From Salpingoeca rosetta (Eukaryota; Protista; Choanoflagellata), in assembly GCA_033442325.1 (NCBI GenBank), contig JAWQFM010000008.1:372001-436000 (forward strand): DNA of 64,000 nt, read 5' to 3'. The first letter of the stretch is position 1; every line of letters begins with the position of its first letter. The notes below the pieces were generated by a model. The model saw nothing but the letters and a program-made list of their open reading frames with translations, had not been told where the DNA came from and did no database searches. A program made the position numbers and the translations under genes. Positions 587-13,707 of the stretch are shown here, in pieces.

Positions 587-2810
587 GAGACTCTCTCTCT
601 CTCTCACANNNNNNNNNNNNNNNNNNNNNNNNNNNNNNNNNNNNNNNNNNNNNNNNNNNNNNNNNNNNNNNNNNNNNNNNNNNNNNNNNNNNNNNNNNNN
701 NNNNNNNNGATTGGATAGTTTGCGGCCGTTTGGGTTTTGTGTGTTGTGTGAGTGTGTGAGTTTGATCCAATGTGTGTGAGTGTGTGTGTGAGTGTGTGTG
801 TGTGTCAGTCAATGTGTGTGTGTGTGTGTGTGCACTGGTCGCGTCTATCGCTTCATGAGTCACGTGACCCCCCATCCATGTCTCGAGTCACAAACCCGCA
901 AGCTCACACACACACACACACACACACGCACATCTGTACGCACAAACGCGCATGCGCAGGATGAGACGGTCACCGCTGTGCCTGCGCCCGTGAAAGTGTT
1001 TGGGGACATCCACGGGCAACTGCACGACATGCTTGCCTTCTTCCGCATCTATGGTGTTCCCCACACCATCCACGGTGACATTCACTACATCTCCTACCTC
1101 TTCATCGGCGACTTTGTCGATCGCGGCTCCCACTCCCTCGAGGTGCGCCACTGTTGTTGTTTAAGTTGTTGTTGTTGTTGTTGTTGCTGCTGCTGCTGTG
1201 TATGGTGGTATCACCAACGTGTTTAAGTTGTTGTTGTTGTTGTTGTCGTTGTTGTTGTCGTTGTTGTTGTTGCTGCTGCTGTGTATGGTGGTATCACCAA
1301 CGTGTTAGCATTGATGTCGTGTATGCTTGATCACGACTCTCGTGCGTGTACACTGCTGCTGTTGCCTGTGGTTGCAGGTCATCACGCTGCTCATGTGTCT
1401 AAAGCTGCGGTACCCCAAGCGTGTGTTTCTCGTTCGAGGTGAGCGCGCGCGCGTGCAAAGAGAGCTCGCAACGCCACCCGCTGTGTGTGCCGCTGCTCAG
1501 CGTCACGTTGCTGTCTTCGTGGCCATCTTGGCATGTTTCCATCCGCCCACACCTGCCGTCATGGCTCTTCTCACATATGTGTATGTGTGTGCATGCAGGC
1601 AATCACGAGGACTCGTGGGTGAACAAGTTCTTTGGGTTCAGGGACGAGTGTTTGCAGCGGCTGCCTGATGGCGTCATTGTGTGGCAGATGATCAACAAGG
1701 TTTGAAGCCATGGGTTGACTCTTGTGTGTGTTCGTGTACGTGTGTGTGTGTGTGTGCGTGTGCGCATGTGTGTGCATGTGTGTGTGTCTGTGCCGCTTGT
1801 GCGTAAGAGTTGCACTGTCATCGTCCTCTGCTCACAACTTGATGAACCCTGACGATGATTGCTTGTATGCGTGCATGTTGGCAGTTGTTTGAGTACCTGC
1901 CGCTTGGCGCAGTTGTGGACGACTCCATCCTGTGCATTCACGGCGGCATTGGAAGGGTGCGCTCACACCACACTTGCGTGCCTGTGTGCTGTTGCAAGCG
2001 AGGGTGCAGTCGTCTCCATGATCAGTGCTTGTGTACTCTCGCCCAGCATGACCTGAATGAATATGCACCATATCCACACGCGCCCCATACACACACGCGC
2101 AGGATTTTCGGTCTTTGGAGGACCTGCGCCGGATCAAGCGTCCATTCCGCCCATCTGAGGGCGATGACACACACGAAATCCGCGTTGCGCGAGACGCACT
2201 CTGGTCCGACCCAACCGAGAGCGACGAGCACCTAGGTGTGTGTGTGTATGTGTGTTTGTGTGTGTGTGCGTGTGTGTGTGCATGGAGGTTTGTTTGCGCG
2301 TTCTTGCATGCATGCATGCAAGTACGGTGCGTGTCCTCGCAGTCTTGGAGCCGTTTTTATTATCTCTCATCCCTGACACACACACACACACACATACACA
2401 CACGCGCGTGACATTTGGTGTCATTGCAGGGCTGCACGCAAGCGCGACACGCGGTGCCACCATTGTGCAGTTTGGTCCAGACATGGTTCGCAACTTCCTT
2501 CGGGAAAACAGTCAGTTGGGGGGGGGGGGAGAGGAGTATGGCGAGATGTCACACATCACTTGGCCGGTTTCATTCTTTCATCTGCCATGTTTTAAATTCA
2601 TATGCGCCCCACTCCCAGTCTGCTGCAGCCATGGTTGTATGTGCGTTTCGTCGCTCGTGCTTTCTGTCATTGTTAACACGAGCCCTTGTGTGCCCGGTGT
2701 GTACAGACCTGCAGATGATTGTGCGGGCGCACCAGTGTGTCAAGGATGGCTATGAGTTCTTTGCCGGGCAGCAGCTGGTGACTGTCTTCTCCGCAACAAA
2801 CTACTGCGGC

Positions 2811-2897
<87 letters not shown>

Positions 2898-3068
2898 CTC
2901 TTTGTCAGGTGCCTGAAACTTTTGATACCCGTGTGCTACCCCACCCACGTCCCCTCACGGTCGTTCATTTGTTTTCGTGCATTTTACCTCTCAGGTTCGG
3001 GAACGATGCTGCTATGCTCGTTATCAACCGTGAGCTCAGCGTCGCTGTGCACGTCATCAAGCCAGACG

Positions 3069-3124
<56 letters not shown>

Positions 3125-3413
3125 TGTGCTTGTGTGTGTGTGTGTGTGTCCGCGCGCTTTTGTGTGCAGCCTTGTAGTCGTGCCCAATGCAATGTTTTAC
3201 TGTCTGCGTGTCTGATACGCTTTTTGTGCGCTGTCTTCTCACACATCTCGTGTGAATGTGCGCGGCGTGTGCGGCATACAGAGCTATCTTGGTCTGTCAT
3301 CGTGGCAGCCACGCCAGCCCAGCAGTCCCCTGCCCCCATCACTCTGTGGCGGCGATGAAGATGAAGCTCCACACACCGTCACAGGCGAATACCCTCCCTT
3401 CAGTCTCGACTGA
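1..3413 (+). CDS. PPP-family Ser/Thr phosphatase, BSU1/PPKL-like catalytic domain (5'-partial, multi-exon)
   Basis: Frame-consistent GT-AG exons <1-99, 333-415, 960-1142, 1378-1438, 1599-1699, 1885-1956, 2103-2235, 2430-2510, 2707-2812, 2995-3067, and a probable last exon 3282-3413. The product has GDIHGQ, GDFVDRG, RGNHE, HGGIG, LWSDP, RAHQ and FSATNYCG motifs. Confidence 0.9.
609..708. other. Assembly gap (100 N)
   Basis: N run flanked by CA/CT microsatellite, inside an intron. Confidence 0.99.
1149..1306 (+). repeat. Intronic tandem duplication of a (GTT/GCT)n + GTGTATGGTGGTATCACCAACGTGTT unit
   Basis: The unique ~26-nt core occurs twice (about 1198-1223 and 1281-1306), each time after a triplet repeat. 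Confidence 0.8.
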
Positions 3414-4422
3414 TCTGCCGTGTGTAGCTTCTTTGCTTGTTTGTTGGTGGTGATGCTGGTGCACGCTTGCGTGCGCGTGTGTTGGATGAGCGATTGCATG
3501 TTTGATGCGCTGTGGTGCGTGTATTTGTTTGTGTGAGGTGTGCGTTGTTGCATTCAGCTAGGTTCGGACCGGATAATGCCGTTGCAAACGGGTGTATTGT
3601 AATTGCCTGACGGTATGTGTGTGTGTGTATTTTAATGCATAATTGCACGTGATTTGTTGTGGTTCCTTGCTGCGTGCTGCCTTGCCTGTCTTTGGCGTGG
3701 TTGATTTGTTTGCACTGTTGGTTGAAAACACAAGTAAAGCGTGCTGGGAAGCTGATGGCAAGGCAGAGAAGATCCACACAAAAGAAACGGTGTACAGTAC
3801 ACTACGTCGCCAAGACAGCAGTCTTTCGCTGAGCACAAACGCCCAAACACTTGCGCAAAGGGGGCGGGTTGAATTCGAGGGGAAGAATAAGAAAACTACA
3901 TCACACAAACATCCCGACGACGCGACGGCGACAGCGGCACCACTGTCTTACCTTGCAGTCAAGCACTTTGACCCGCTCGCCCGCTGGGTTGTCAAAGCAA
4001 GCGAGCGCACTTCAATGTCGGGGGTTGTGCGCGTTTGAACGTGTGGCAATACATTCGCACACGTGCTTGCTCGACTTGCAGCAGATGTGACGGTGGCCGA
4101 GTAAACACTGTTGGTGAGCGGCGTTGTTGTTGTTGTTGTTGTGTTGTTGTGTATGTGTGTGCGATTGATTGTAGGAGGATTCACGGCGTAGGGCCATTTA
4201 ATGCAGCACAATTCACACACATAACACGAAGAACACACTGCTCGAGGGTCGCTTTAAAGAGAGGGAAGCAACCATCATCGTCTCCAGCCCCACAACCAAC
4301 ACACACACACACACACACACACATATCCATCCAAAACAACGCACACACATGAACCCTTCTCGCACTCATACACACACGTGCGCGCTCTCCCACTCTGTCC
4401 AAGCCAAACACCCACACCCACA

Positions 4423-4543: not shown

Positions 4544-7207
4544 TTAGAAGTACGCGCAAGCAATGTGCTGCATAATGTTGCGCAGCAGTGCTGCTGTCTC
4601 CTTCTTCTTGTCGTCGTCGCTCTTGTCCTGCAGCGCTGCTGTCTCCTTCTTCTTGTCGTCCTTGTCCAGCTTGTCCTGCAGTGCTGCTGTCTCCTTCTTC
4701 TTGTCGTCGTCGCTCTTGTCCTGCAGCGCTGCTGTCTCCTTCTTCTTGTCGTCCTTGTCCAGCTTGTCCTGCAGTGCTGCTGTCTCCTTCTTCTTGTCGT
4801 CGTCGCTCTTGTCCTGCAGCGCTGCTGTCTCCTTCTTCTCGTCCTTGTCCAACTTGGTCAACTTGGCCTCCAGCCACTGCAACAGGAACGCCTTGCCCTC
4901 AAGCAACCGGTACATGGCATCGGAGAGAGAAGTAGAGGAGAATACGTATGCAAACAGCAGCGATTCCCAATCCAGAACAACTTTTGCAGGAATCGCTTCT
5001 GCGTCGTGATGCAGCAGCCACTTGCGAGGGCGCTCCCGCAGCCGCGTGGAGTAAGATTCGGGAAGCGACGAAGGGGGGGTCTGTGCTTCATCCCGCGAGC
5101 GAGCCTTGCAGAGGAAACCAAAGTCGACGATGCAGCCGTTGCGCAGGATGTTGTGCGAGCGAATGTCACGGTGACAAAGATCCCGTTTCGACAAGCGGAG
5201 GAGGTACTCAGCAGCGGCCGCAAGCCCCGCTTCGTCCTTGATGCCCGTGCCATGAAGCGCCTTCTTGCCGTCGGTGCCCGCGCCCGTTATATGATTCGAT
5301 AGGTCGGGACAGGCAAACACGGGGCGTGACCGCTCGTGCACTTTCACCGTTTCCTCTGGATAGACGAGTTCCCAGCCCTCCCGTTCGTTGCTAGCCTCCT
5401 TGGCAGCGCCAATCTCGTGGCCGCCGCACACTTTCAACACCTCGCCGTTCACCAATGCAACCGTGACCGTATCCTCATCGCCTTTGTAGACGCACATCTC
5501 GTATCTCGTGGCAACTTTGGCAGACCTCGCCCGTGCTGCTTTTGTGACCGCAAGCTGCTGACGCTGATGCCCCTCCTTGCCGTTGTCTGCTGTGTCGGTC
5601 TGCGTGGCTGCCTTGTCGCGCTCTTCCTCATTCTGCACACCCCCATCAGCGCTATCGTTGGTGCCGCCGTTGCCACTGTTACTGTTGTCGCTCGCACCAC
5701 CGCTAGCTGCGGATGAATCTCTGTTGTCTCCGTGCTCCGGAATGGAGGTGAGACCGCTCCCCTTTCCCTGTGCCATGGCGTATGTGTGTGTGTGTGTGTG
5801 CGAGTGCGGAAGTGAGTATCATTGTTGATTGTTGAACGAAAGAAAGACGATACACGCACGCACACAGGATTTGTGTGTGCATATGCGTTTGTGTGCGAGG
5901 TGTGTCATGATGGCAGAATACCAAGGCAGCAAGCGAGCAAGACAGCAAGAAGACAAGCAGACAACAGAGTAAGTGGGCATCAAGTCACGCCTGCGACGGC
6001 TACCTGGGCAATGGCGGAAATATTCTCGTAATGCGCCATGTGCTCTTCGTCAAGCAGCCACGCAATGACATTCCCGAGTTTCTCCAACTAAAGTCCACAG
6101 CACAGGAAACCAATGTGAGCGCAGCGTCCAACGTGAATTAGCAGTATACAAGGCAACAGCCAGTCGACAGCAACTGCACATGCACACGTGCAGGAGCATG
6201 TGCCACACACACACACACACACAACGCACACCCTTCTTCTCTGTTCGCACATGCGGTGGCAACTCACTTTGGTGTCGCAAAGTTTTGTGTGGAGGACGCT
6301 GGGAAAGGCCTCCTTGCCGTGCACCTCATCGCCCAGCGTGCACGCGTACACGGACACGTTCTGCCCGCAGACGGTGATGGCAAAGGGAAACAAATACCCT
6401 TTCAAGTCACGCCACTCCGGCCCTGCAGACTTGATGGCCCGTGATGCGTACTCCAGCACCTGCGCCTTGGCAGCATCCTGTGTCGGCTCGCTGTCATCGG
6501 TCTTGAGCTCAAGCAACAGCGGGTAGAAGTCAAGGTTTGACATCAGACGCACAACATAGTCGGCGACAACAGCGGTGTCGGCCTCAAATGATGCATGGCT
6601 CTTGACGTCCACTTTTGCATCACCACAAGCCTTGAGCAGAGGTATCTTCATGCGGTCGTTGAACCGCGTCTCTGGCGTGCAAAATACGCCAGAAAAGCCT
6701 GCAGTGCGGTGGGCGTGCATGGTGCAGCGTTGGTGTGAGCGACAGAGAGACATCCCCTCAACGCTAGCACACCCGCGCACGAGCGCCAAAGACTCAACCA
6801 CCATGCATCAGCACCGACACACACACACACACACGCACACATGCCACGTTCTCTCGTGGAAAGGACGCTCACATGTGCACGTGTACACAGCAAGCAAGCA
6901 CATGCTCGACAACGACCTTACCCGTGTTTGTGCCCTCATCGACTGCCCGTTGAAACCCTTTGTTGTGCAGGTGCCAGTTGGGGCACAAGAGCTCGGCAGA
7001 GAACGGCTGCGAATAGACTGTTCTGTGGGCCGAATCCTTGTCCTTCTCCTTCTCCTTGGCAGCGCTGCTGGGGGTCACGCTTGACTCCAAATCTGCCACG
7101 AACCACATCAAACAGCCAATATGAGTTCAAAACAACCCGCAAGCAACGTGTCAGTCAACCAGGGTGCTCATGCACAGGGCTGCTCGCAGTAATCTAACAA
7201 CACCGAT

Positions 7208-7255
<48 letters not shown>

Positions 7256-8093
7256 GCATCAGCCCATTTGGTCACGCAGCCGCACATGAAAGGCTGAGTG
7301 AGACAGGCGCACCTTGTCGAAACTGCCGTTGCTCTTCGGACAGCCCTTTGCGTGTCACATTGTCAAGCTCCAGAAGGAACCCTTCCGCAACCTTCAAGGG
7401 CACCTGTGGCGTCGGCGTCTTTTTCTCATCCAGCACACTGCGGACTTGCTGGAGCAAGTTCTTGATGTTTTCCGTGTAGGGCTGCTTCAGCATGCTGTCG
7501 ACATAATTCTTTGCCTTGGGTGCGTTGTCGAGAGGGCCGGGTGAACCGATTTCGATCCCATGCCGGCCTGCAATTGTGCTGATCTGCTCGGCGAAGGCGC
7601 GGTATGATCGCTTGCAGTCTTGCAGAGTGCCCCCCAAAAGGCTCTCGTACTCTTTCATTGCTGCTTGCAGATATGCGCGCGCAAGCACAGCAGCCTGAAA
7701 GAAAAGAGGGCGGGTCGATTGAACGAAGTACAGCAGGTGCCCACAAAGTGAGATTATGGCTGGTGTGCACGTAGACAATTTTGGCGCCAAGAGGGTGTTG
7801 ATGATGTTTCCCCACCTGACACACACCCACACACCCACACACATATGCACACACACACGCACACACATGCACACAAACATACACACAGGTGCACACACTC
7901 ACACATACATAGGTGAGCACACTCACACATACACAGGTGCGCACATGTACATGCACATAACCATACACTCATACACGCGCCCTCTCGGGCTATCGCCACA
8001 CGTTCGCACACAACCCAAACAATAACTCACGTCGTTTGTCGACAGGCTTGTGATGTCAGACTCTTTGGTTTTCCTCTTTTGAGAGGTGGACAT
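4544..8093 (-). CDS. Crinkler/RHS-type effector-like protein: helical N-terminus, PD-(D/E)xK REase-like domain, low-complexity linker, divergent fungal-type (FunK1-like) protein kinase, tandem-repeat tail
   Basis: Phase-consistent exons 8093-8031, 7694-7313, 7092-6922, 6698-6268, 6087-6004, 5767-4544. REase-like: ADYVV...PLLLELK...AKAQVLEY. Kinase: VLKV..E, HRDIRSHNIL, IVDFG, DWESLLF. Confidence 0.7.
4586..4851 (-). repeat. Coding tandem repeat with a 93-bp higher-order unit (15-aa and 16-aa subunits, six ETAAL copies)
   Basis: CAGTGCTGCTGTCTCC recurs at 4586, 4679 and 4772. The protein alternates KKKETAALQDKSDDD and KKKETAALQDKLDKDD. Confidence 0.95.
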
Positions 8094-8312
8094 TGCGGTA
8101 CTGTTGTTTGAATCCTCTCCCTTGCATCGTGCATCATGTGCGTGTGTGTGCGTGTGTGTGTGCAGGCGTACATGTGTGAGAAACAAAAAGCGCGCGCATT
8201 TGTGCTAGCAGGCAAGTGCTTCGACAACAAGTGATGCTGGGCCGTCACGTTGCACACGCTGCGTGCGCTGCAACGCACGTTTGAACGGCTCCCTCTCCAT
8301 CGCTTGCTCAGC

Positions 8313-8412
8313 NNNNNNNNNNNNNNNNNNNNNNNNNNNNNNNNNNNNNNNNNNNNNNNNNNNNNNNNNNNNNNNNNNNNNNNNNNNNNNNNNNNNNNNN
8401 NNNNNNNNNNNN
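8313..8412. other. Assembly gap (100 N)
   Basis: N run. Confidence 0.99.
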
Positions 8413-8656
8413 CGAAGCCTGCCCGGCTGTCATCTGAGTGTCTGCGATGTCTGTTGTCTGTCGCGGGCGGTGGTAGCAGTTGATGTTGGTGGTGTTTCGT
8501 TTTTGAAAATCGAGCGAGGGAAAATGGCAAACCACAGGCGAAAAAATGATGATGATATACATGATTCCTCGGCAACAGCAGTTGTCTGCTTTGCTGTGGG
8601 CGTAACTGTCGTCGGCGGACTGTCTGTCTCTGTCTTGTCTCTGTATGGGCACGGCC

Positions 8657-9670
8657 ATGGTTCGACGTGCATCGATGTGCCGCAGAGGTGCTGTGGTGGC
8701 TGTTCTTGTCGCTATTGCTGCTGCTGCTGCTGCTGCTGCTGCTGTGCTCATGGCTGCACCCGCAGCTGCCGAGAACAACCACCACCACCATCACTCTTCC
8801 GACGACGACCACCACAACAGCTGCAGTAACAGCAACTTAACAAGTGCACTGTCAGCAACTTGAACAACAACAAGAACACCCGCGTTTGCGCAGGTGCGGA
8901 GCCGACATCCATGCGCAGCCTCGTTTGCTGAGTATAACGGCGGAGTGCGACGCAAATTGCTGCTGTGATCCGTCATGCACGACGCTGGTGAAAGCGCGCT
9001 TTGCCTACTGCAACACGCCAGACATCAAGCCCTGGCGCAGGTGCGTGTACGATGACTTCTTCGTCACCAACGAGGGCAGGAACCAGGCCATCCAAGCAGC
9101 AGAGGGCAGCAGCATCGCGTGCGTGCTGGTCGACAACACAAATGACCGCATCTCGTTCAGGGAGCCGCGCACGCCGCTCAATGACGCCGCGTTCCAGGCA
9201 TTCGCAGACGTTGCACGCCCCCGCCCCATATCCTTCAGCCTCGAGACGCTGCAGTACACGCCGGAGGAGGCCATCTTCATCCCGCCACGCAACACCATCC
9301 CACGCCAAGACCCTTTCCCCTTTTACGTCACGTATGGCGCGATCGTGTACATCACGCAGGACAGCACGACGCTCACACCGCTGCCTTTTCCCGCCGACAC
9401 GCTGCAGGAAGGGGGGTGCACCACGCAATCCAACGCGCGTCTTTGCGTCCGCGCCAGGCACGTGCACCCGCATCATCCCAGCGGCAGACGATGCCGAGCG
9501 TGTTCGGGCGATGTGCAGTCCTGGTGGCGACCTTGATGTACCGGTCCCGACAGACGCCGCGGTCCTTGCAACATACACAGGCATCACAACCAACATCCAA
9601 ATCATTTACAGTCAGTCGAGACCTTGGGAAGGAGGAGGGAGGAAGTGGGAAGTGATGTGGTGTTGTGTGT

Positions 9671-9720
<50 letters not shown>

Positions 9721-10390
9721 TGTGTGGGTGTGGGTGTGGGTGTGGGTGTGGGTGTGGGTGTGGGTGTTGTGTGTGAGGAGTGTTTGGTGTGTGTGTGTGT
9801 ATGAGTGTCTCATTGTCTGTGACTTCACCTGACCTCACATGACCCCGCATGACATTTTCCCGCCCTTGCTTTGCCTTTACAGGTGGATGTGATGGTGATT
9901 GCACCATCCGTTACAACGCATCCACCCAACGCTGCATCAACGCTGTGCAAAAGGTGTCGTGTATGTCTCTGTGCTGTGTGCTGCGTGTCTGTGTGCTGTG
10001 CCTCTGTGTGTGTATGTGCTGTGTGTGCATGCGCGTGTCTCTCTCTCCGCCCTTTGTTTCCGTCCTTCCCCTCTGTGTGTGCGCCTTCCCTCGTTGCGCC
10101 TTGCTGCCAACACCATCCCTCCATTGCTGCACGGCCCCTGGTGCCAGGTCGAGTACACCATCCAGCTTGGCCTCACTACCATCTCCTCCCTCAATGTTGC
10201 CGTGACCGTCGCTTCCTTTGACGCCTCGGCTACACTTCACTTGTCACCTTGGTACGGGCCCAAGCGAAACTGTCTCTGCAGAATAAAAATCAATTATTTT
10301 CTGGCGAATTTCAATGGCGGAGAAGGCAAACAACAACAACCAACCAACAACCAACCAACAACCAGCAGCAACCAGCGCAGCAGCGCTTGA
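8657..10390 (+). pseudogene. Tectonic-like (TCTN family) ciliary transition-zone gene, apparently frameshifted and 3'-truncated
   Basis: Signal-peptide-like start, Tectonic signature ECDANCCCDPSC...RFAYC...IACV, and later RCINAVQK|VEYTI...V.V. There is a +1 frame change near 9435 with no visible intron, and no RSGNPGY motif or C-terminal half. The family call is fairly firm; pseudogene status is uncertain. Confidence 0.6.
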
Positions 10391-10603: not shown

Positions 10604-10946
10604 ATGATGTCCCGCTCCAATACAGGTGAGGTCCGCTTTGGCCGTGTGTGCGACAGGCGGTGTGGTGATGTGTAGCCTGTGGTGGTTGCGTGTCGTGGTA
10701 CACGCTTTGGCTGCCTCATTGCTGCTGTGGTTAATGCAACTGCCGTCATTGATACAGCTATGCTTCCCCCTCTCATCCAACACACACGCACGCACGCACA
10801 CACACACATACACGCACCCTCTCACCCAACACACACACACACATATCCTCTCACCCAACACACACACACATCCTCTCACCCAAACACACACACATACACA
10901 TACACCCACGTACCTACACACACACGCACACCACACCCACTCACAT

Positions 10947-11056: not shown

Positions 11057-13707
11057 CACGACCATCCACCGCATCACGAATTCGCATCTCGTCGTCAACC
11101 ACACACTATGTATCGTCCAAGCCGGCATCACAGCCGGGGCAGCAGCGGCAACAACAGCGGGAACAGCAGCGGCTGCAGTCCATCGACATGGACGATGATG
11201 ATGTGGAGCAGGCATTTGTCCAAGCCATATCCGAATATGTGACGGAGGATTGCTTGGTGAGTATTGCCTGGCCACAACAAATCCACCCTGCCATCTCGCA
11301 ACATACACACTCGCACAGATGGGTGCAGCAAGCCCACAACATGCTCGCAACACATTCTCACACTGCGTATGCTTGTCACGTCACCAGCGAGAAGCGAGTG
11401 GCAAGGACAACCTGGAAGACGTCGAGTATATCGAATTACAGGTGCGTGCGTGTGTGTATGCACGTGTGCAGGTTTCATGTGCCTCACTTGCACTATGCAA
11501 ACCGAGTAACCCTCTCCCCTGTCCCACCATGCTCACTGCCCGCCTCTTACATCCGACACTGCGGCGCCACGCGACGCACAGGCGGACACGAGCGAAAGTA
11601 GCCTGGCTCGACTGGGCCAGCTATTGCCGAATTTGAAGGAGTTGAAGATGGTTTCCAGCAACATCACAACAATCAGGTATGTTTCGGAAGGGTGTGCGAT
11701 GCGCGTGACTGCATACAATGTATTTGTGCACGTGAATTGATTCGGACGCGTGGAATGGATGGATAGCGCAAGAATTGAATGCAAGGCAGCCAACGCATGT
11801 ACAGCTGCTGGGCCACTGTCCTTGTATGCCCGCACGCCCGCTTGCTCACCACACCAACACGGCACGATGCAAGGGATCTTGGAACGGCACTAACAAACCT
11901 GCAAGTGCTGTGGATGTCCAAGTGCAACCTGTCGGACCTCAGCGGCATCAGCATGCTGACCTCGCTTCGTGTATGACGCCGCGTGACTGTTTCGGTTGTG
12001 TTGTGTTGTGTTTGCTTGTGGTAGGGGTTATACTTGTGGTTGTGGTTGTGGGGGTGCTGTCTTTCGTTCACTGTGTTGCAGGCGTTTGCACGGGAGACCG
12101 CCGTGGCCTGCACACACTTGCCCCAATACGACCCTCAACCCGCTGCCTTCATGTGTGCACAGGAGCTGTACGTTGCGTTCAACGATGTGTCGGAGTGCAG
12201 TCCGCTGTCAATGCTGGAGCAGCTGGAGGTCCTCGACCTCGAAGGGTATGGACACCTGCTGCCAGCACACCCCAGCACACCAATATCACGGAGAAGAACA
12301 AGAGCAATAGCCACAACAATACCAACAGCAGCAGCACTCACTGCAGTTGCTACCTCTCCACTACCACGACCACCACCAAAGCAATAGCTGCAACAAACTA
12401 CTGTTCATGTGGTTGAGAGGGACGTGGTGCGTGCTCATGTGTCATGTCACGTCGTTGCATCGTTCTAATGCCGCCACTGTTTGGTTTTGGTCTCGGTGTT
12501 TCCCTTCAGCAATTCCATCCGGGACACAGCGCAGGTGGGATCAACACCCGAACATAGGCGGTTATGTCATCATCGTTGTTTCACACAGACACACGCACGC
12601 ACGCACGCACACACACAGACAGAGGCCCACAAGGTTATGTACTCTCATGCGCGCCCATGCACATGCACACATAAACTACAGGTTGAGTACTTGAGTCTGT
12701 TGCCGCGGCTGCGAAGTCTGTCGTTGGACGGAAACCCGCTACTGAAAGCGTACAAGGTGAGACCACCGAACTAGACTGCCTGACAGATGATTCACTCGCT
12801 GTCACATCACGACAGAGCACACACATACACACAGACAGACACACACATGGGCACAACTGCAGGCAAAGGGGCACACAACCACTTGGAGAACATTTAGCCA
12901 TCCGCATTTCATGGCACGTGTTGCAGCATGGTGTCTGCATGTCTCACGCTTGCTTGCATCATGCCTGACGTGCAGTCTAAGGCCACATATCGACAGGCCG
13001 TCTTTGACATGATCCCAACGTACGGTGCAGCCACGGTGCTGCGTGCGTGTGTGAGTGAGAGAGTGAGATTGTGTGAACGTGTGTGTGTGTGTGTGTGCAT
13101 TCGGTTTACTGTCAAAGAAACATGCGTTCAATACATGCCCAATCCACCTCAATCCTCAATGCACACGTATATGTCTCTGCCCGAAACACACACACACACA
13201 CACACACACGCACTCACAAACACTTTCTCTCACCATCAACATGCATGTCCGTAATGCCGGCGCAGGTTGGCGCTGCTTGACGATGTGGCGAAAGGAGATG
13301 CTGTTGAGGAGACAACAGATGCTGCAACCTCAATCCTCATTCCAACGCTGCTCAAGAAGCGCCCAGATACCACCCAAGGTGCCTGCAAGCACACCTCTCA
13401 CTCTTGCATGCGTTGCCATGTGTGCGTTGCTTGTGCGTTTGCTTGCACGCACGCATGCATGTGCTTGTACGCATGCATGTGCTTGCACGCACGTGTGCTT
13501 GCGTGCGTGTCTGGGAATTAGTGCCCTGCATGCTCGCGTGCTCACGTGCTACTTGACTGAAACCGCCCCCCCCCAGATCCAAGCGTCAGGGAAACGGTTC
13601 GCCCTGGAACAGCGCGGCCGGCAACCAAACACACAGGTGTGTGTAAAAGTGGTGGTGGTGATGGTGGTGATGATGATGATGATGTGCATGCCCGTGTGCA
13701 TCTGAAA

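Follow-up and report, generated by a model that had tools for sequence, protein, structure and literature searches.

We analysed a 64,000-nucleotide (nt) stretch of the Salpingoeca rosetta genome (the window; positions 372,001 to 436,000 of contig JAWQFM010000008.1, assembly GCA_033442325.1) that contains PTSG_03118, a spliced gene predicted to encode a nuclease-fold domain followed by a protein-kinase-fold domain. PTSG_03118 is flanked by a PPP phosphatase on one side and a head-to-head tectonic-like sequence on the other. Its model consists of six minus-strand exons (8093-8031, 7694-7313, 7092-6922, 6698-6268, 6087-6004 and 5767-4544), and the initial annotation was right to join these as phase-compatible: the intron ends are GT-AG, the phases are 0,1,1,0,0 and there are zero internal stops. 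The product, first estimated at ~770 amino acids (aa), comes to 784 aa, the same sequence as in the S. rosetta database entry EGD82468/PTSG_03118 (P0001), which carries the name 'kinase subdomain-containing protein'.

The annotated model is likely short at its 5′ end, and the full gene would comprise seven exons and about 802 aa. This assignment is based on a likely first exon (8413..8433, minus strand), absent from the annotation, that starts with an ATG at 8433 and encodes MTAGQAS, its last codons and donor falling inside an N gap at 8313-8412. A related sequence of 2,622 bases, L001, spans this gap with about 40 bases and reads MTAAQASTP followed by a GT donor; two paralogs (P0002 and P0005) begin with the same N-terminal peptide, and 5/6 paralogs checked carry 6 or 7 annotated introns. 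The second exon would then cover 8031..8120 (minus strand), with a 27-nt extension (GEDSNNSTA) upstream of the annotated start at 8093 and an acceptor before 8120.

The following exon (7313..7694) encodes most of a header (aa 22-149) that is predicted, with low model confidence, to be all helical; it is the most variable folded part of the protein and is swapped between paralogs. A connector exon (6922..7092, aa 149-206) contains a conserved QPFSAELLC stretch, and both of its flanking introns are seen in RNA reads. The nuclease exon (6268..6698) is followed by a short exon (6004..6087, aa 350-377) that, according to the model, supplies the two closing helices of the nuclease domain and is joined to the nuclease exon in reads. 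The last exon opens with a low-complexity linker (5498..5767, aa 378 to about 467) of varying length and sequence; over aa 378-440 its mean identity among 10 paralogs is 47%, and the model has a predicted local distance difference test (pLDDT) score under 50. The kinase-fold domain (4874..5497) is followed by an in-frame 45/48-nt tandem repeat of the KKETAALQDKSDDD type (4585..4856), the copy number of which differs among paralogs, and then by a final helix, which is conserved, and the stop codon at 4544. All of these features are on the minus strand.

We aligned two raw S. rosetta RNA runs and two contig sets to positions 4900-7180, which cover introns 2-5. The reads are stranded and compatible with minus-strand RNA under the usual library type. 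The splice joins proposed initially are seen directly for intron 3, removed in 15 and 20 reads of the two runs, and for intron 4, removed in 16 and 22 reads, with a further 11 and 24 showing a paralog form; for intron 2 the evidence consists of 48 and 50 loose read ends at its 3′ end that continue into exon 2. Within intron 5 coverage drops to 0-3, versus about 50-125 on both sides, and its exact joint was not listed by the tool, the repeat at 5772-5814 beside the intron having been skipped. At this repeat there are 66 and 151 loose ends with a consensus of mixed paralogs, and 3 + 3 reads connect 6003 to a site within the kinase exon. Many of the RNA reads, and indeed most of them, stem from near-identical paralogs and not from PTSG_03118 itself. 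Taken together, the reads show three introns and support the join to the kinase exon indirectly; it is therefore unlikely for the family that the kinase exon and the upstream exons are separate genes, a conclusion less secure for the PTSG_03118 copy itself.

Predicted nuclease and kinase domains

The domain encoded by exon 4 can confidently be predicted to adopt a PD-(D/E)xK nuclease fold, in agreement with the restriction endonuclease (REase) fold expected from the initial reading of its motifs. Its model, built on a 16-row alignment, has a pLDDT of 83.6, a predicted template modelling score of 0.77 and the core order alpha-beta-beta-beta-alpha-beta (H8-23 E29-37 E40-51 E60-65 H70-90 E105-110). 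In a VIA-align comparison with 48,161 chains the best match was BpuSI (3s1s; Z 11.1, root-mean-square deviation 2.4, 111 aligned residues), followed among others by 3ijm (Z 9.3), Vibrio vulnificus HsdR (3h1t, Z 9.0), TT1808 (8.9) and DrdV (7lo5, 8.4); all top 7 are of restriction-endonuclease type. The full-length model also matches BpuSI (Z 11.6). Foldseek returned zero matches to the exon-4 model at E<=0.001; the best, at 1.7e-3, is also an REase, and the first ten rows are restriction-endonuclease-type or uncharacterised proteins. An Atlas feature search with the domain retrieved BpuSI_N and HSDR_N clusters (0.90 and 0.87). A viral fold search found generic phage nucleases (best E 4.7e-4) and no sign of viral origin.

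The motif residues named initially are all present, those of the nuclease (D252, E269-L-K271, Q285-x3-Y289) as well as those of the kinase (H576RDIRSHN583, D592FG, D643WESL). In the nuclease, E215 (6672), D252 (6561) and E269-x-K271 (6510-6502) occupy helix 1, strand 2 and strand 3, respectively, in the predicted structure, and Q285-x3-Y289 maps to 6462-6448; by comparison with the PD-(D/E)xK family, we take E215, D252, E269 and K271 to be catalytic. E215 and QxxxY are kept in 14/14 copies of the gene family described below, and the D252/E269/K271 triad is intact in 10/14. The D/E/K triad and QxxEY are retained between copies just 20-28% identical overall, and no part of the protein is better conserved than its nuclease exons (72-82%, against 54% in the header).

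The C-terminal domain is a pared-down protein-kinase fold according to Foldseek, Z scores and conservation: there were 42 Foldseek matches in the PDB at E<=0.001, all kinases among the matches listed, and the Z scores to kinases are 10-11. Its residues are K489 (5434), H576-x-D578..N583 (5173-5150), DFG (5125-5117), E622 (5035) and D643 (4972), whose subdomain roles we assign by comparison with kinases in general. The initial description of a stripped-down kinase holds in that no GxGxxG loop was found upstream of K489 in PTSG_03118, but the invariant Lys (K489) and the Glu of ERP (E622) are kept in 13/13 kinase-bearing copies, as are HxD, the Asn and D643. The HRD motif, present in PTSG_03118 as stated, is atypical of the family, being found in 2/13 of these copies against 7/13 with HCD. 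The assignment to Pkinase_fungal (PF17667) is not supported: it matched 0/8 close members, and the distant P0015 scored 18.6 bits against a cut-off of 24.1. Pfam gave zero matches above cut-off for the whole PTSG_03118 protein and its single exons and zero Crinkler hits in the members scanned, in which the sole above-cut-off match was APH in P0017. A PDB sequence search returned weak kinase hits only.

Modelled at full length, PTSG_03118 has a pLDDT of 59, which is weak overall and fair in both enzyme domains; a complex prediction for the nuclease and kinase domains, in which the alignment was not used, scored 0.03. The header had no usable look-alike in the Atlas search and no recognised relative or sensor domain there, and a crude hydropathy scan found no signal peptide or transmembrane stretch in 14/14 copies. 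A whole-protein Atlas feature search led to eukaryotic kinase-bearing clusters from oomycetes, chlorophytes, rotifers, fungi and haptophytes (0.92-0.94), look-alikes that carry Pkinase_fungal (11-37% of members) and DUF6826 (26-28%); one structure row, at a TM score of 0.41, carries Crinkler (17% of members).

Copies, recombination and expression of the family

The paralog count proposed as a check in the initial annotation yielded at least 14 annotated S. rosetta copies on 12 scaffolds told apart by length, a lower bound drawn from annotated proteins, 13/14 of which carry both nuclease and kinase. Initial searches returned 8 and then 10 close relatives, all from S. rosetta. A profile search of 1.84 billion representative proteins gave 11 hits: 3 known relatives, 4 more S. 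rosetta proteins (P0011 and P0015-17), 2 pieces of L001 and 2 fragments. With distant members as profile, the large-collection search gave 1 hit among 7,991 candidates and was crowded out and uninformative. Narrow pattern scans found relatives in 0/145 viral stretches and 0/14 prokaryote genomes, and a metagenome pattern scan found two identical loci (2/27). P0014 and P0018 are short-contig fragments, distant relatives of the nuclease domain (37-40% to PTSG_03118) with an altered QxxxY, and could be from another species.

All 10 nuclease-intact copies keep the kinase catalytic residues, and loss of the kinase or of the DFG Asp is restricted to the 4 nuclease-degenerate copies, where it affects 2/4 (Fisher p=0.066). 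Among these, P0007 has a full kinase, P0016 has a changed DFG with the Asp kept, P0010 is without that Asp and P0011 is without an annotated kinase. The linker and N-terminal kinase part are internally duplicated in another copy, P0003 (PTSG_11132).

The header of P0001 is 93% identical to that of P0009 and 61% to that of P0002, and the P0001 nuclease and kinase are 95-97% identical to those of P0002. Because header, nuclease and kinase trees conflict, the copies appear to be recombining mosaics that have exchanged domains with one another: in 5/6 cross-tests one part rejects the grouping of another (approximately unbiased (AU) test, p-AU<0.05, one barely), with header data rejecting P0001+P0002 (p-AU 1.6e-6) and kinase data rejecting P0005+P0002+P0004 (p-AU 1.8e-4). 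L001, a second copy that may be either a paralog or another strain's allele, is 90-96% identical to the window in flanks and introns and 63% in the 5′ half of the header exon. Between the two, the ratio of nonsynonymous to synonymous substitution rates (dN/dS) comes to 0.30 in the nuclease exon and to 0.85 and 1.39 in the aligned header codons (28 and 63 codons), a pattern indicative of purifying selection on the nuclease exon and of none on the header. Since copies share introns and flanks, duplication at the DNA level, not retroposition, is suggested. By eye, L001 matches no single annotated paralog: its header is P0005-like, its nuclease exon P0004-like, and its connector exon has a P0009-like end with a 24-base duplication; small indels in its header exon may be errors. 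Gene conversion and pseudogenisation have likewise been described for Spok and wtf genes.

In published expression data (supplement of PMC4054682), mean FPKM (fragments per kilobase per million reads) of 14/14 copies is higher in 5 swimming or colonial than in 3 attached samples, by 1.8- to 27-fold. For PTSG_03118 the ratio is 4.0, compared with 2.1 for the one neighbouring gene that served as control. A second study (supplement of PMC12572184) has 11/12 copies checked higher in swimmers than in thecate cells, the exception being PTSG_12416, and most copies checked lie outside the repressed chromatin cluster if its 'Matrix n' corresponds to 'Cluster n'. The expression values of both studies may be blurred by cross-mapping between near-identical copies. 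PTSG_06416 and PTSG_08100, which have lost nuclease catalytic residues, are both colony-enriched and were recorded as 'NoDomain' in PMC4054682, whose kinase table files PTSG_03118 as 'discarded', adding the remark 'No strong NCBI blast hits'.

Beyond the gene, the 3′ part of the PPP-family phosphatase lies at about 890-3400 (plus strand); next to it, the locus tag PTSG_03117 denotes a phosphatase marked as foreign, with a green-algal best hit (supplement of PMC7971027). On the other side, the tectonic-like (DUF1619_N) sequence (8674..10390, plus strand) has in-frame stops near its start, another apparent frame change near 9440 and looks too short. It is without 11 bases found in L001 (1-400) that encode the first two cysteines of the tectonic CxCDL motif. 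Judged by three-frame translations, it probably arose by duplication and has since decayed, although an overlooked intron or errors in sequencing are possible. L001 has the 5′ part of this sequence beside it as well, so that the piece may move together with the nuclease-kinase gene. A leucine-rich-repeat gene follows at about 11190-13600 (plus strand; weak LRR_4 hits below cut-off). A 23-base inverted match (22/23) at 3468-3490 and 10772-10794 encloses the gene together with the tectonic-like piece; the window holds no further exact occurrence of its 14-base core, and two near-copies adjoin the right arm. Half of it is dinucleotide repeat, it is without target duplication and it is probably due to chance. 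We dropped a transposon reading of the locus, at which no terminal inverted repeat, target duplication or helitron-like end was found in a search limited by a 100-N gap just beyond the PTSG_03118 stop codon. The available part of a survey of S. rosetta transposons mentions neither 'kinase' nor 'nuclease'.

Proposed function and rival explanations

By analogy with the logic of fungal Spok genes, we give about even credence to the proposal that PTSG_03118 and its relatives encode an intracellular DNase toxin that is restrained by its own kinase and maintained through genetic conflict, the header being the part that changes and determines specificity. The conflict role suggested in the initial annotation fits a multicopy, recombining family. 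In mechanistic terms, E215, D252, E269 and K271 of the nuclease would bind metal and cut DNA and QxxxY would bind nucleic acid, while the kinase (K489, D578, N583 and D592) would phosphorylate its own protein or the target of that protein and so block toxicity, in cis and probably also in trans. The fast-changing header would set specificity and, on this proposal, would therefore be swapped between copies. Copies that keep the kinase and have a degenerate nuclease, such as PTSG_06416, could be antidote-only or regulatory. Genetic conflict would then maintain the family as an addiction or killer element, harmful to any cell without a matching kinase, with partial domestication for defence in swimming and colonial cells possible. 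We infer toxicity, DNA cutting, phosphorylation, restraint by the kinase and drive alike. A bolder version, which we consider unlikely, is that of an active Spok-like killer family in which headers differ, copies harm cells or meiotic products without the matching kinase and header swaps create specificities; the colony-upregulated PTSG_06416 and PTSG_08100 would then be host-tamed antidotes or decoys.

A number of observations weigh against the proposed toxin. A shared fold alone shows no function, and activity is predicted from models. The likeness to Spok and to Crinkler/RHS-type (CR) proteins is architectural: among the 11 profile hits from 1.84 billion proteins there are 0 named fungal proteins, and none is named from a species other than S. 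rosetta. The Spok Cys/His cluster (C-x3-C-x13-C-x5-H-x7-H) is absent in 14/14 S. rosetta copies, and neither transposon ends, target duplication nor a carrier element was found. The paired loss of nuclease and kinase residues is a weak pattern (p=0.066), since the copies are related to one another and P0011 may seem to be without a kinase through an annotation artefact. As to recombination, the groups for the AU tests were picked after inspecting the trees, and assembly chimeras of near-identical copies could mimic the signal; the header dN/dS values come from a single pair, and L001 carries indels that are possibly errors. The window-specific letter at 7012 appears in only 5/54 and 0/74 reads of the two raw RNA runs. 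Cell-type-biased expression equally fits a host function, and the neighbouring control gene is biased too. Finally, in the available part of PMC4381721, a cross of S. rosetta (Rosetteless x Isolate B) is mostly Mendelian (78% of markers), with 13/60 markers distorted and causes named for nine.

The same biochemistry, differing only in its beneficiary, would serve a domesticated defence in which kinase-gated nucleases destroy invading DNA (from viruses, mobile elements or engulfed bacteria) or kill the infected cell, with headers as sensors. Such a system would be most useful to feeding swimmers and colonies, in line with the expression of the copies in these cells and their position largely outside repressed chromatin; the lineage-specific expansion with a variable header also fits, and CR proteins have been proposed to have arisen against invasive DNA (PMC5289972). 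We nonetheless rate defence as somewhat improbable, given that no sensor domain is recognised in the header, that PADLOC hits are confined to at most 2/14 members with the nuclease domain unmatched to a defence model, and that the copies with the strongest colony bias include nuclease-degenerate ones, a finding that DNA cutting does not readily explain.

If the beneficiary were sought outside the cell, the proteins would be effectors delivered unconventionally to prey bacteria, competitors or other protists with the header as delivery module, as in oomycete Crinkler (CRN) proteins. CR headers are thought to drive translocation, classical signal peptides having been ruled out, and in Phytophthora CRN8 cell death requires the REase and not the kinase (PMC5289972). 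The higher expression in free, feeding cell types would suit this view, but the family has neither a hydrophobic stretch nor a ubiquitin-like (Ubl), LxLFLAK or HVLV header. Moreover, a free-living phagotroph is not known to have a delivery route, and we find it very unlikely that the proteins act outside the cell; the term effector used at first is without support if taken to mean a protein secreted and aimed at a host. Alternatively, a signalling kinase family, with a nuclease-fold domain that merely binds nucleic acid or protein and a copy number that reflects neutral segmental duplication, would account for the 4/14 copies that are without nuclease catalytic residues and still expressed, and for the introns and flanks that the copies share, as ordinary segmental duplications do. 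Retention of the triad and QxxEY between highly divergent copies and the conservation of the nuclease exons above all other parts speak against it, and we regard this explanation as unlikely.

S. rosetta has genome editing and crosses, so that selfish killing, defence and signalling are directly testable in a free-living relative of animals. The fold assignment also identifies colony-associated genes previously annotated 'NoDomain'. If true, the Spok-like killer version would mean that the sister group of animals harbours a family of selfish killer genes with a link to colony life.

Comparison with known systems

We found no paper describing the family by title or abstract; Zhang et al. 2016 and its supplements may list Salpingoeca proteins. 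Twelve identifiers for 11/14 genes were absent from article main texts, and 0/6 family locus tags were present in the PMC11934334 supplements. The core fold and catalytic layout of the nuclease are those of the N-terminal nuclease domains in type IIG and type I restriction enzymes (BpuSI 3s1s, DrdV 7lo5, HsdR 3h1t) and of DUF820-type nucleases. In contrast to these, to which identity is about 15% or less, the S. rosetta protein is without methyltransferase, helicase or specificity subunit, and it comes from a eukaryotic gene with introns in which nuclease and kinase are fused.

With the Spok spore-killer proteins of Podospora the family shares the order of N-terminal domain, PD-(D/E)xK nuclease with QxxxY, linker and atypical kinase. 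The third fold match of the S. rosetta nuclease, HsdR 3h1t, is also the best hit of the Spok3 nuclease, likewise with QxxxY, as reported in the available part of PMC6660238. That part further describes point mutants according to which killing depends on the nuclease Lys, and resistance, in cis and trans, on the kinase Asp, and the accessible portion of PMC9972908 reports that kinase-dead Spok1 damages DNA in Escherichia coli. The two differ in that the variable repeat is C-terminal in S. rosetta, whereas Spok has an N-terminal coiled coil; S. rosetta is also without a shared ascus as a route to the killing of siblings.

The pairing of REase and kinase in one gene, noted initially, is a recognised CR class that makes up about one-sixth of CR C-termini and includes free-living eukaryotes (PMC5289972). 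Nuclease-kinase CR proteins are widespread in eukaryotes, and in the available sources their function so far rests on CRN8 and the architecturally similar fungal Spoks. The S. rosetta family resembles CR proteins in its variable, putative N-terminal header, its REase-fold domain followed by a kinase, its lack of a signal peptide and its multicopy, recombining nature. Unlike them, it has a predicted helical header without recognised relative in place of a Ubl/LxLFLAK/HVLV header (absent in 14/14), no match to Pfam Crinkler or Pkinase_fungal that passes the cut-off, and no evidence of secretion or a host; judged by the absence of LxLFLAK in its sequences, it is not a classical CRN family. The initial view of an undescribed system was too broad, since the architecture is known, including in free-living eukaryotes, and has been modelled functionally in Spok genes. 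Collectively, our results describe a real, previously undescribed, lineage-specific family whose header belongs to no known family; because nuclease plus kinase is already a known CR-type class, it is not a new kind of system but a new member of the nuclease-kinase kind.

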